The notes under the pieces are model-generated. The model did not search any database and was not told the origin of the DNA. It was given only the letters and a program-made list of their open reading frames with translations. The position numbers were made by a program, and so were the translations under genes. Source: a virus (lineage: Duplodnaviria; Heunggongvirae; Uroviricota; Caudoviricetes). Taken from it: a stretch of 26,648 nt of DNA. Below are positions 23,437 to 25,364 of the stretch, piece by piece. The DNA lies in IMG/VR virus record IMGVR_UViG_2531839149_000016. One strand, 5' to 3'. The first letter of the stretch is position 1; the number at the start of each line of letters is the position of its first letter.

Positions 23437-23619
23437 TATCCTTCAAGCCCTGAAGGAGGCTGTTCCTGGTACGTTCAGACTGTTGTTGAGCTGGAAATCG
23501 CAACGGAGGAAGAAACTTCGTTGCTGGAAGTCTGGAAGAAGTATCGGGTGTTGCTGAACCGTGTTGATACATCAACTGCACCTGATATTGAGTGGCCTAC
23601 GAACCCTGTCAGGGAGTAA
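23437..23619 (+). pseudogene. tfa: Tail-fibre-assembly (tfa) 3' remnant, copy 1 (…[34 protein letters not shown])
   Basis: 60 codons with no start codon, ending in the conserved Tfa C-terminal motif; in-frame directly after the stf stop. Confidence 0.5.
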
Positions 23620-24214
23620 TCATTGGGATTATGCCGCAGCACTTACCTAAATACGTTATTCTTTTGTTCAAAAAGTGATTTTGCTATAGGTAGGGAGTAT
23701 GTTCTTGGATTAAGAATAAAAATCGCCATGAAAGAGCTTCATGGCGAGTACATAAACGTACAAAATATGATGAAAGTAGAGTGGCGTAAGCCACTATATT
23801 AAGATATGACAATAGCGAAGAAAAGTAAATAACATTTTATGGGCGTTTAATTGTTAATTATAAAAACTAGAGTGCCCGATATTGTTTATCTTGCTTTAAA
23901 ATAATGTACTCAAACCAAATTTTTGAGCTAAAAGCTCAAATAATATAAATGCAATGATAATGTTTAATAAGACAATTAGCTTGCTTTGTATTTTCATTTC
24001 GGAATACTGTTAAGTAACTTTGATGACACTAACAATAGATCGGAATTTTCTTAGAGTCAATGGTCACTGTTTTTGCTTGCAAAGCAAATGTTTTTGGTGG
24101 TTATAAGTTTTCTTAATATAGTCACCTATGCAACTTGTTCCGTGTGGAGATTAAAGGTTAAAATTTAATGCGAAGATGGAATTATAATATATTTTTTTAT
24201 AATTAATTTAACCT

Positions 24215-24318
24215 TAACATCGTTGCTGGCGGCATGGAAGAAATATCGGGTCTTGCTGATGTCGTGTTGGCACTTCCTTAGTGCGGTTATCGAATGGCCA
24301 GCTGTACCTGTGGGGTAA
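24215..24318 (+). pseudogene. tfa: tfa 3' remnant, copy 2, degraded ([12 protein letters not shown]…IEWPAVPVG)
   Basis: Same conserved motif, with the middle of the motif corrupted. Confidence 0.4.
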
Positions 24319-24978
24319 AAACTTTATATGGGTGCTATTTTTATAATAGCTGGTAAAAACTGGCCGAACTGAAATTCACTGTTGATAAAAAAGATGTGTT
24401 TGAGTGTATGTCATTGTTTTCTTAACGGAATCCACTAGAATGCAGCGAATTTAAGAAGGTGGGTTTTTATTGGAATATAAACTACAATAATGCTCAACTC
24501 GTTCGTAGAATTGTTTTTTCTTATTTTTTGGAATGCTAACCATTATATGCATTATGGGGGCGATACTTCCTGATAATTTACATGATGCATACATTGAAGC
24601 AATAAATTCAATATCATTGTCATCAAAGTTAAAGCTTTCTCCGTCCATTTCAATTCCTTATGTGTTTGGCATAACTGATGCTGTATCCCATGAGAATTTA
24701 TGCAAGTTGTTATGTTTGATTTGATATTGCAATGATAATTGTAGCTAATTGTTTTCAATTGAGTGAAAGTTTATTTCGAGTGATTAAGTCGAAAAAAAAG
24801 ATTTCTCACGGTTAGTAAGCGTATTAGGTTAGTATTCAGATATGAATGGTATTAATGACTAAATTTTCAATCATATATGGATTTTTATGCTGATGAAGAT
24901 GTTTTATTTGGCGATTCGTCAAGCATCTTCACTTAAGTAATCGTATATTTTAAGAGTGCAAAAGAGAAAGGGACAACG

Positions 24979-25076
24979 TTGCTCGCACTCTGGATTAAAT
25001 ATAGGGTGTTGTTAAACTGCGTTGATACATAATTGTACCGGATATTGAGTGGTCTGAAGTCCCAGTCATTAAGTAA
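24979..25076 (+). pseudogene. tfa: tfa 3' remnant, copy 3, degraded (WIKYRVLLNCVDT*, then frameshifted PDIEWSEVPVIK)
   Basis: Same motif, interrupted by a stop and a frameshift. Confidence 0.4.
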
Positions 25077-25364
25077 TCGTTTCGTGATATGCCGCAGAAA
25101 CGTTGTATGCAATAACGTTCTGCGGTTGGCTGATGCACTTTCGAGAGTGTATTGAATAATTTCAAGCCGTTATTGTTTTTACGCGTAACACCATGAAAAG
25201 ACTGCTTATCTGTTGGGGTATTTTTTGGGGCATATATGGGACAGAAATAGGCCACAGATAGATAGTAAGATCGAACTCAGGATGCTTTTGAAAAAATGTA
25301 ACTATCTGAAAAAAACTAGAAAGCGCCAAGGAAACCACAGAATGAGAAAAAACATCTGTGAATT

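Follow-up and report, generated by a model that had tools for sequence, protein, structure and literature searches.

How does a prophage come to carry the 3'-end of one gene three times over, each copy separated from the next by several hundred base pairs of AT-rich DNA? This question is raised by IMG/VR record IMGVR_UViG_2531839149_000016, a stretch of Caudoviricetes DNA of 26,648 nt (hereafter the window, meaning the whole stretch that was analyzed), in which an array of partial copies of the tail fiber assembly gene, tfa, sits between a fragment of an S74-peptidase tail fiber gene and the host gene ydfJ. The likely answer is that the three repeats are non-functional pseudogene remnants, i.e., recombination scars of the successive replacement of tail-fiber/chaperone modules at the distal end of a lambdoid late operon, and they would have no present function in this defective prophage. 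Overall, the array is an ordinary feature that does not overturn current understanding; the added value of its analysis lies in tying the boundaries of the remnants to a domain border of the Tfa protein, in the breadth of the composite to which two of them belong, and in a joint between two prophages.

The three tfa remnants

All three copies lie in direct orientation on the + strand, at 23462-23619 (copy 1), 24216-24318 (copy 2) and 24958-25076 (copy 3), with a spacing of 702 and 756 bp. A repeat search of the window recovered them as a single three-copy family (at 23514, 24216 and 24972, with identities of 100, 84 and 73% over 44 nt) and found no long inverted repeats flanking them. Self-BLAST aligned 24958-25097 with 23500-23639 (75% over 144 nt, E = 1e-18) and 24216-24269 with 23514-23566 (81% over 54 nt, E = 6.5e-9). 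The first-pass annotation of this DNA, made by a model from the letters alone, had described three copies of a tfa 3'-end that share the C-terminal motif of Tfa, and this is borne out at the DNA level and at the protein level. Copy 1 matches positions 87-130 of the 131 positions of the Pfam profile Caudo_TAP (PF02413; E = 7.6e-20), and lambda Tfa aligns with all three copies in tblastn searches: residues 147-194 at 23473-23616 in copy 1 (E = 2e-20), residues 161-192 at 24217-24312 in copy 2 (E = 5e-7), and residues 156-179 and 182-194, in a match broken by a frameshift, at 24958-25073 in copy 3 (E = 4e-5). Two of the proposed limits shift, i.e., tfa homology begins at ~23462-23474 rather than 23437 in copy 1, and at 24958 rather than 24979 in copy 3.

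Each copy comprises the last 100-155 bp of tfa, starting at about residue 147, 161 and 156 of Tfa, respectively, and none of them encodes a full-length Tfa, i.e., a protein of ~190 aa with its N-terminal fiber-binding domain and an intact frame. Judged from their sequences, the copies are pseudogene fragments and not functional members of the Tfa family. Some such fragments are already called incomplete tail fiber assembly genes by the Prokaryotic Genome Annotation Pipeline (PGAP), which names copy 2 'tail fiber assembly protein, frameshifted' in locus L008 (L-numbers are labels of the comparison loci fetched for this work), and in annotation they should be labeled as tfa pseudogene remnants.

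By alignment, the three copies derive from three different tfa alleles, which were DLP12-tfaD-like, tfaQ-like and lambda-like, respectively. Copy 1, which retains the C-terminal domain only, shares 94% identity with K-12 tfaD over 169 nt, a match that extends 20 bp beyond the stop codon and takes in the left arm of the hairpin that follows. Copy 2 shares 76% identity with K-12 tfaQ, post-stop bases included, and carries a +1/-1 compensated frameshift. Copy 3 contains an in-frame stop codon and a 1-nt deletion, and its identity with lambda tfa is 77%. Among ~175 fetched loci, the nearest intact alleles of copies 2 and 3 are just 77-78% identical to them; the DNA directly past copy 3 has matches of 90-91% in other contexts. 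Degradation had been described as increasing along the array, and this holds for copy 1 as compared with the other two, but not between copies 2 and 3: where intact alleles are conserved, identity is 97% for copy 1 and much the same for copy 2 (76%) and copy 3 (75%). Copy 3 additionally shows a drift toward AT, with 17 GC-to-AT versus 5 AT-to-GC substitutions and a GC content of 40%, compared with 47-50% in intact alleles.

Tfa-type chaperones combine a variable N-terminal fiber-binding domain with a conserved C-terminal helical domain, and have been likened to the intramolecular chaperones of S74-type fibers (PMC9608196). The tfa 3' block is the sole DNA common to otherwise unrelated fiber cassettes, and the two-domain architecture of Tfa fits this sharing of the 3' block alone. 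Likewise, the possession of its own chaperone by an S74 fiber fits the presence of a beheaded tfa behind it. Such a fiber precedes copy 1 in the window, where 22725-23436 (+ strand) is the C-terminal fragment of a side tail fiber with an S74-peptidase (intramolecular chaperone) domain (Pfam Peptidase_S74, E = 1.7e-13), named 'pyocin knob domain-containing S74 family peptidase' by PGAP in related genomes. For phage evolution, the array would cleanly illustrate how a chaperone's domain structure determines where the DNA boundary of an exchangeable host-range module falls.

Spacers, shared composite and joint

The spacers are AT-rich, as had been noticed from the letters, with a GC content of 25-35% versus 44-57% in the flanks, and they are unrelated to each other in self-BLAST. 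Spacer 1 (23643-24210) is accessory DNA of the lambda b-region type, present here in a short form; it occurs in 831 of 5426 complete E. coli genomes, the collection used for all genome counts, and in phages ev099, mEp332 and PhiR70_1. Spacer 2 (24319-24957) occurs in 591 of these genomes. No open reading frame (ORF) of the spacers has a match in Pfam or PHROGs. The spacer 2 ORF, an orphan of 65 aa on the minus strand (24451-24648) that has a good ribosome-binding site and corresponds to hypothetical protein WP_000348576.1, has no PADLOC match either. Its homologues are restricted to E. coli and at least 88% identical, and their length ranges from 45 to 83 aa, a variability that argues against a conserved protein. 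The minus strand carries promoter-like sites and a terminator, and the spacer ORFs are orphan, E. coli-only, variable in length and without family match.

The DNA that begins with spacer 1 and ends with the final hairpin, copies 2 and 3 and spacer 2 included, forms one composite that is 97-100% identical in ~580 genomes (580 of the 5426 span the junctions between spacer 1, copy 2 and spacer 2). Approximately 250 genomes have spacer 1 alone, up to 24210, and continue from there with a longer form into other DNA, while spacer 2 without spacer 1 was found in no genome among the 5426. The unit from the tfa end to 25181 recurs with 95-99% identity at ydfJ (L007 and L010), at the lambda att site (L003) and at argW/intS (L008), and the composite often sits behind an intact 582-bp tfa and a full-length fiber gene. 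Homology to other loci stops at 24210, which is a copy boundary, and at 25181, inside the module that follows the final hairpin. Identity between L008 and the window is just 81% in copy 1 and spacer 1 but 97-98% from copy 2 onward, and this jump marks the boundary of copy 2 as a recombination breakpoint. Viable phages carry parts of the same arrangement: in ev099 and mEp332 an intact tfa is followed by spacer 1, and in PhiR70_1 an S74 fiber is followed by a tfa fragment and spacer 1, which in these phages has the longer form and runs on to an AraC-type regulator, insertion sequence fragments and an integrase. Comparison across these loci shows that the composite is conserved and, from its distribution, mobile among prophages, and that the aligned module boundaries coincide with the tfa copies and the hairpin. 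In L004 and L005, the DNA following the long form of spacer 1 includes, at ~4840-4910, a sequence that by eye resembles the 3'-end of a tRNA (...GGTTCAAATCCCCCTCTCTCCGCCA) and may be a residual copy of the attachment site of a further phage.

In the window, copy 1 does not come from the prophage that supplied copies 2 and 3. At the left end, ybhC (1-1284) is followed by an integrase gene, i.e., this is the lambda attachment site, and the window is 99.9% identical to the ybhC-site prophage of strain YD786 over 1-22700 and 99.6% identical over 22000-23642. From 23643 to 26648 it matches the ydfJ-site element, which YD786 also has, in opposite orientation. Past its tfa fragment, the ybhC-site prophage of YD786 continues with a complete hairpin, a methyltransferase gene, a second tfa fragment, a GGDEF gene and ybhB. 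The window has at 23620-23642 (+ strand) the post-stop sequence and the left arm only of the post-tfa hairpin (GCCGCAGCAC), as delimited by alignment with tfa ends and by single-nucleotide polymorphisms (SNPs), whose type changes here from YD786 lambda-att to Qin. The joint reads ...ATGCCGCAGCAC|TTACCTAAATACG..., directly past the hairpin's left arm. Of 112 post-tfa hairpins in the fetched loci, no other is reduced to its left arm in this way, and in the 831 genomes with spacer 1 every match begins at the base after the joint. On these alignments, the window is a hybrid in which a lambda-att-site prophage (ybhC side) is joined to a Qin-type right end (ydfJ side), which implies either an inversion between two prophages or an assembly chimera.

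In the related strain YD786, ybhC and ydfJ are ~0.86 Mb apart and oppositely oriented, and the two flanks of the window have opposite orientation relative to K-12. The two prophages share ~0.9 kb of fiber and tfa sequence that is 98-99% identical. With the flanks opposed and this segment in common, an inversion between the two oppositely oriented prophages is the most parsimonious account of the joint. Chromosomal inversions by inter-prophage recombination have been described for E. coli O157 and other species. The window is like these in that a ybhC-site left part is joined to an oppositely oriented ydfJ-site right part, and unlike them in that the joint lies outside the shared homology, ~50 nt beyond its end and without microhomology. 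Within the shared segment, SNPs alternate between the two parental types, a pattern compatible with patchy repair in the course of recombination, with different parents, or with an assembly in which a repeat was collapsed. A 14-nt deletion between TTA repeats could relate the junction of the window to the common junction, and if so, the former might be the older form. The window documents a probable inter-prophage inversion with its joint inside a small hairpin.

Hairpins and candidate RNAs

Three perfect hairpins had been proposed as recombination sites or small-RNA elements. All three are present at the positions assigned to them, the third being imperfect (12 bp with one bulged A), and they are not alike: one has the features of a terminator, one is weak, and one is a conserved post-tfa element. 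Hairpin 1 (23724-23746) has a fold z-score of -5.4, and none of 200 shuffled sequences folds as well. On the minus strand its 11-bp stem is followed by TTTTTATTCT, a U tract picked up in the terminator scan, and by this signature hairpin 1 is a minus-strand intrinsic (Rho-independent) terminator. It would end a candidate structured RNA of ~130 nt (23712-23850, - strand), which consists of a stem-loop (hairpin B, 23780-23795, z = -6.0), an AU-rich linker and the terminator hairpin (hairpin A) with its U tract, with z = -5.6 overall. The candidate occurs in 831 E. coli genomes and in three viable phages, and its core is better conserved than the surroundings in the divergent, 81%-identical allele of L008. 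The candidate shows no covariation and no compensatory changes, and its -35 box is poor. The minus strand of spacer 1 offers a plausible candidate for a prophage small RNA (sRNA).

Hairpin 2 (23922-23940, - strand) is weak and AT-rich; its stem at 23923-23940 has z = -2.6, with one of 200 shuffles folding as well, and it was flagged as terminator-like in the scan, lies inside an unsupported ORF of 33 aa and is probably of no consequence. Hairpin 3 (25091-25125, + strand), with z = -2.6 (three of 200 shuffles) and a stem of -21.5 kcal/mol, is near-identical to the hairpin after lambda tfa, and variants of it occur after DLP12 tfaD and near K-12 Qin attR. Across 13 variants, 91% of the cells are paired and one pair covaries (8 C-G, 2 A-U, 2 U-G). 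Its recurrence identifies hairpin 3 as a conserved post-tfa stem-loop marking a module boundary, and it may act as a terminator. Past it lies a conserved module together with the attR-proximal arm of a Qin-type prophage (25126-25364): the window at 25092-25400 is 86% identical, over 316 nt, to K-12 Qin DNA adjoining ydfJ. The suggested role of the hairpins in recombination finds some support in hairpin 3, which coincides with module boundaries and with the joint of the window, but the junctions themselves look illegitimate and sporadic rather than site-specific.

The copies also match Rfam family IS009 (RF02111), a candidate sRNA from a screen of E. coli intergenic regions. The matches span 23376-23576, 24204-24279 and 24843-25034 and score 93.6, 40.8 and 32 bits for copies 1, 2 and 3 (E = 1e-21, 2e-7 and 3e-5), all below the gathering score of 117; in the whole window no Rfam family reached its gathering score, and no tRNAs were found. 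The IS009 model matches tfaD, tfaQ and tfaX as well, and its best matches are the coding 3'-ends of intact tfaD and tfaQ (L006, 3857-4055; L002, 7345-7543). Its structure is not shared by the copies, since copy 2 aligns to the unpaired 3' tail only and copy 3 aligns poorly to the paired part. IS009 therefore probably describes tfa coding sequence rather than an RNA gene, and as an RNA gene it was rejected, all matches being sub-threshold and the shared part unstructured and coding. A 2026 preprint places IS009 matches near PasB, an Hfq-bound prophage sRNA. PasB was also considered as the spacer 1 RNA and rejected: in enteropathogenic E. coli E2348/69 it lies between a tail-assembly gene and gpJ, and its probe sequence is absent from the window.

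These results bear on the possibility that the repeats or the spacer elements are sRNA genes, be it IS009 or a new spacer 1 sRNA, and that the array is regulatory. The match of all three copies to IS009, the terminator-ended layout of the spacer 1 minus strand and the retention of its core in the divergent allele would all be expected of such genes. However, similarity at the protein level persists in the copies, which have decayed in the manner of coding sequence, the structured part of the model is entirely missing from copy 2, and the spacer 1 candidate has neither compensatory changes nor a convincing -35 box and is not PasB. A regulatory array thus appears improbable.

Origin of the array and its parallels

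The remnants can be accommodated in a simple scheme of successive replacement. The oldest layer would be the one nearest the attachment site, i.e., copy 3, the terminal hairpin and the downstream module. A newer fiber module would then enter from the left and bring its own downstream AT-rich baggage, each join being made once, illegitimately, just upstream of or inside the resident tfa 3'-end. The finished unit would be bracketed by sequences of nearly every lambdoid phage, so that homologous recombination could spread or delete it, and we propose that spread through these ubiquitous flanks explains the near-unchanged composite in hundreds of genomes at several sites. Copy 1 would have been brought beside the composite by the join between the lambda-att-site and Qin-type prophages inside the post-tfa hairpin. 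The strong hairpins would be transcription-related stem-loops, namely the minus-strand terminator of spacer 1 and the post-tfa stem-loop. The general idea of the first-pass annotation, that the array is a fossil of tail-fiber module exchange, survives in this scheme, with three alleles in direct orientation, but the stack was neither assembled nor degraded in this prophage. Remains of earlier modules would thus accumulate in the interval that separates the late operon from the attachment site and that usually houses accessory and defense genes.

The closest parallel is found in the K-12 prophage DLP12, with the order tfaD, hairpin, ybcY' (on the opposite strand), tfaX (ylcE), AT-rich DNA and appY. 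As in the window, a defective lambdoid prophage ends distally in direct tfa 3'-ends with unrelated DNA between them, and tfaD, the gene whose end copy 1 resembles so closely, is followed by the same hairpin. DLP12 differs in having two layers and a recognizable cargo (a methyltransferase), whereas the window has three layers and spacers without a recognizable gene. In many IMG/VR contigs, a pattern scan revealed an intact methyltransferase gene of the ybcY type between two direct repeats of the tfa end with its hairpin, which lie 1049 bp from each other, and DLP12 tfaD-ybcY'-tfaX is a decayed version of this arrangement. The window likewise has direct tfa 3'-ends around unrelated DNA in the distal part of a lambdoid late operon.

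In phage lambda (locus L014), tfa is followed by the hairpin and the b region (ea47, ea31, ea59). Copy 3 and hairpin 3 are of the lambda type, and in both cases the late operon is separated from the attachment site by accessory DNA; unlike the window, lambda has an intact tfa and no recognizable tfa remnant before a second hairpin. This second post-tfa hairpin (L014 5163-5200, ~lambda 24162-24200) lies in the non-coding gap between ea47 and ea31, so that ea47 is flanked by two hairpin copies, and the ~100 bp past it resemble by eye the post-hairpin module of the window and the attR-proximal DNA of K-12 Qin. In the window, in DLP12 and in lambda/Qin, the hairpin and the module belong to the layer closest to the attachment site, with the extra material upstream of it.

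Lambdoid morons and mosaic module boundaries are reportedly the subject of work by Hendrix, Juhala and colleagues, and tail-fiber mosaicism is said to have been treated by Haggard-Ljungquist and Sandmeier. The spacers are like morons in being AT-rich accessory DNA at a late-operon boundary, flanked by a stem-loop and shuffled by recombination among phages. In a classical moron a gene can be identified together with a promoter and a terminator of its own, whereas the gene content of the spacers is doubtful and their flanks are repeated gene remnants. Nothing specific to stacked tfa remnants was found in the literature.

Several observations weigh against successive module replacement as set out here. 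An intact tfaQ-type gene directly before spacer 2, which is the ancestral intermediate that the scheme predicts, occurs in none of the 5426 genomes, and the layering steps, the spread of the unit and the position of the oldest layer amount to a reconstructed order of events. Additionally, four independent left boundaries (~-155, -104, -119 to -140 and, for tfaX, ~-230 to -270) fall near the start of the conserved block, a clustering that the scheme alone leaves unexplained. The covariation in hairpin 3 is confined to a single pair, with 17 of 500 shuffles scoring as high, and this hairpin has no U tract on either strand and was not called in the terminator scan. Recombinants break within the spacer 1 core in L152 and L158, and the conservation of this core could reflect a recombination patch rather than selection. 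Lastly, the joint at 23642|23643 shows no microhomology and no shared bases, and it is absent from the complete E. coli genomes, IMG/VR, the GTDB representative genomes and the Joint Genome Institute metagenomes. If the adjacency of copy 1 and spacer 1, and hence the three-copy array in the window, were an assembly chimera between two prophages, this uniqueness would be expected, as would the alternation of parental SNPs (in the manner of a collapsed repeat) and the distance of ~0.86 Mb between the two flanks in the related strain. However, the switch occurs past the end of the shared segment, where there is no shared sequence and where graph assemblers do not normally join, and natural arrays of S74 fragment, tfa fragment and spacer 1 occur in L001, L004, L008 and PhiR70_1, so three copies exist without any chimera. 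A chimeric origin is accordingly assigned a low probability.

If a tfa 3' segment had been duplicated in tandem within this locus and the duplicates had then diverged, direct copies at similar spacing would result, as observed, but such an origin is very hard to reconcile with two mutually unrelated spacers, with copies that are each nearer to a different outside allele (tfaD, tfaQ or lambda) than to one another, and with the separate occurrence of the layers in other genomes. Scarcely credible is a remnant of a host-range segment inverted by a Pin/Gin/Cin-type enzyme, as in K-12 Qin, e14, Mu and P1. Din-invertase systems (Mu G/gin, P1 C/cin, e14 pinE, Rac pinR, Qin pinQ) do stack tfa and fiber ends at one position, and in K-12 Qin, which occupies the same chromosomal site as the array, pinQ comes right after tfaQ, the gene that copy 2 resembles. 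Yet these systems hold an invertase and alternative tfa genes in inverted orientation, whereas the copies in the window are all direct, truncated and dead. The absence of an invertase gene noted in the first-pass annotation is upheld, since the top match to PinQ anywhere in the window has E = 0.061 over 32 aa and indicates no homologue, and the comparison with the K-12 Qin tfa-pin region suggested there revealed no homology to pinQ-ydfK-ynfT DNA. A diversity-generating retroelement was also considered and rejected: the differences between the repeats are of all kinds, indels included, rather than falling on adenines alone. The 99.9%-identical YD786 prophage has no annotated reverse transcriptase, although no dedicated profile scan was made.

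A different view of the same observations is that the stack holds captured cassettes and not passive scars, the tfa 3' block and hairpin serving as a docking site that is actively used, either through excision of circles between direct repeats and their re-integration or through a hairpin-directed recombination activity. The many contigs with cargo between direct copies of the tfa end and hairpin, the two lambda hairpins around ea47, the small number of downstream contexts, each starting right after the hairpin, the unique joint of the window inside a hairpin and the recurrence of one composite at three attachment sites all speak for it. Nevertheless, no recombinase is associated with the sites, the junctions differ in type (inside the hairpin, after a complete hairpin, or after a hairpin-less tfaQ-type end), spacers 1 and 2 contain no convincing genes, and ordinary homologous recombination needs no dedicated system, all of which makes active capture improbable. 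A milder version, still unlikely but somewhat less so, is a recombinase-free platform, in which the tfa 3' block and hairpin would serve the exchange of accessory DNA among lambdoid phages, with the hairpin as preferred breakpoint and possibly an sRNA in spacer 1 besides. If such a platform existed, DNA bracketed by two copies could be gained or lost through homologous recombination in any phage with the tfa end and hairpin, and the array of the window, the ybcY cassette of DLP12 and lambda ea47 would be three instances of one mechanism.

The surroundings of the remnants are those of a defective lambdoid prophage. Upstream of the array are a holin-lysozyme-Rz cassette, ydfO- and ynfO-like genes and a truncated nohA-like small-terminase gene (22223-22729, + strand), fused by deletion to the tail fiber fragment: homology to K-12 nohA stops at 22729, and homology to S74 fibers begins at 22725. 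With the nohA-like gene joined directly to the fiber fragment at 22725-22729, all head and tail genes have been lost, which makes the prophage defective. On the other side, 25365-26648 (+ strand) holds the 3' portion of ydfJ, the host gene into which Qin integrates, according to the PGAP annotation of related genomes.

Elsewhere in the window, a HipA-like kinase gene (7458-8300; Pfam HipA_2, E = 1e-76) and a gene for a DUF3037 protein (8282-9034), both on the minus strand, adjoin the repressor gene, and the pair matches both components of the PADLOC candidate defense system PDC-M66 (E = 6e-15 and 4e-16). Between the antiterminator Q gene and the holin gene, 16520-19278 carries lipocalin-family, YbgA-family and frameshifted helix-turn-helix (AraC-like) genes, named after the annotation of the near-identical YD786 prophage, and forms a second accessory-gene site of the same prophage.

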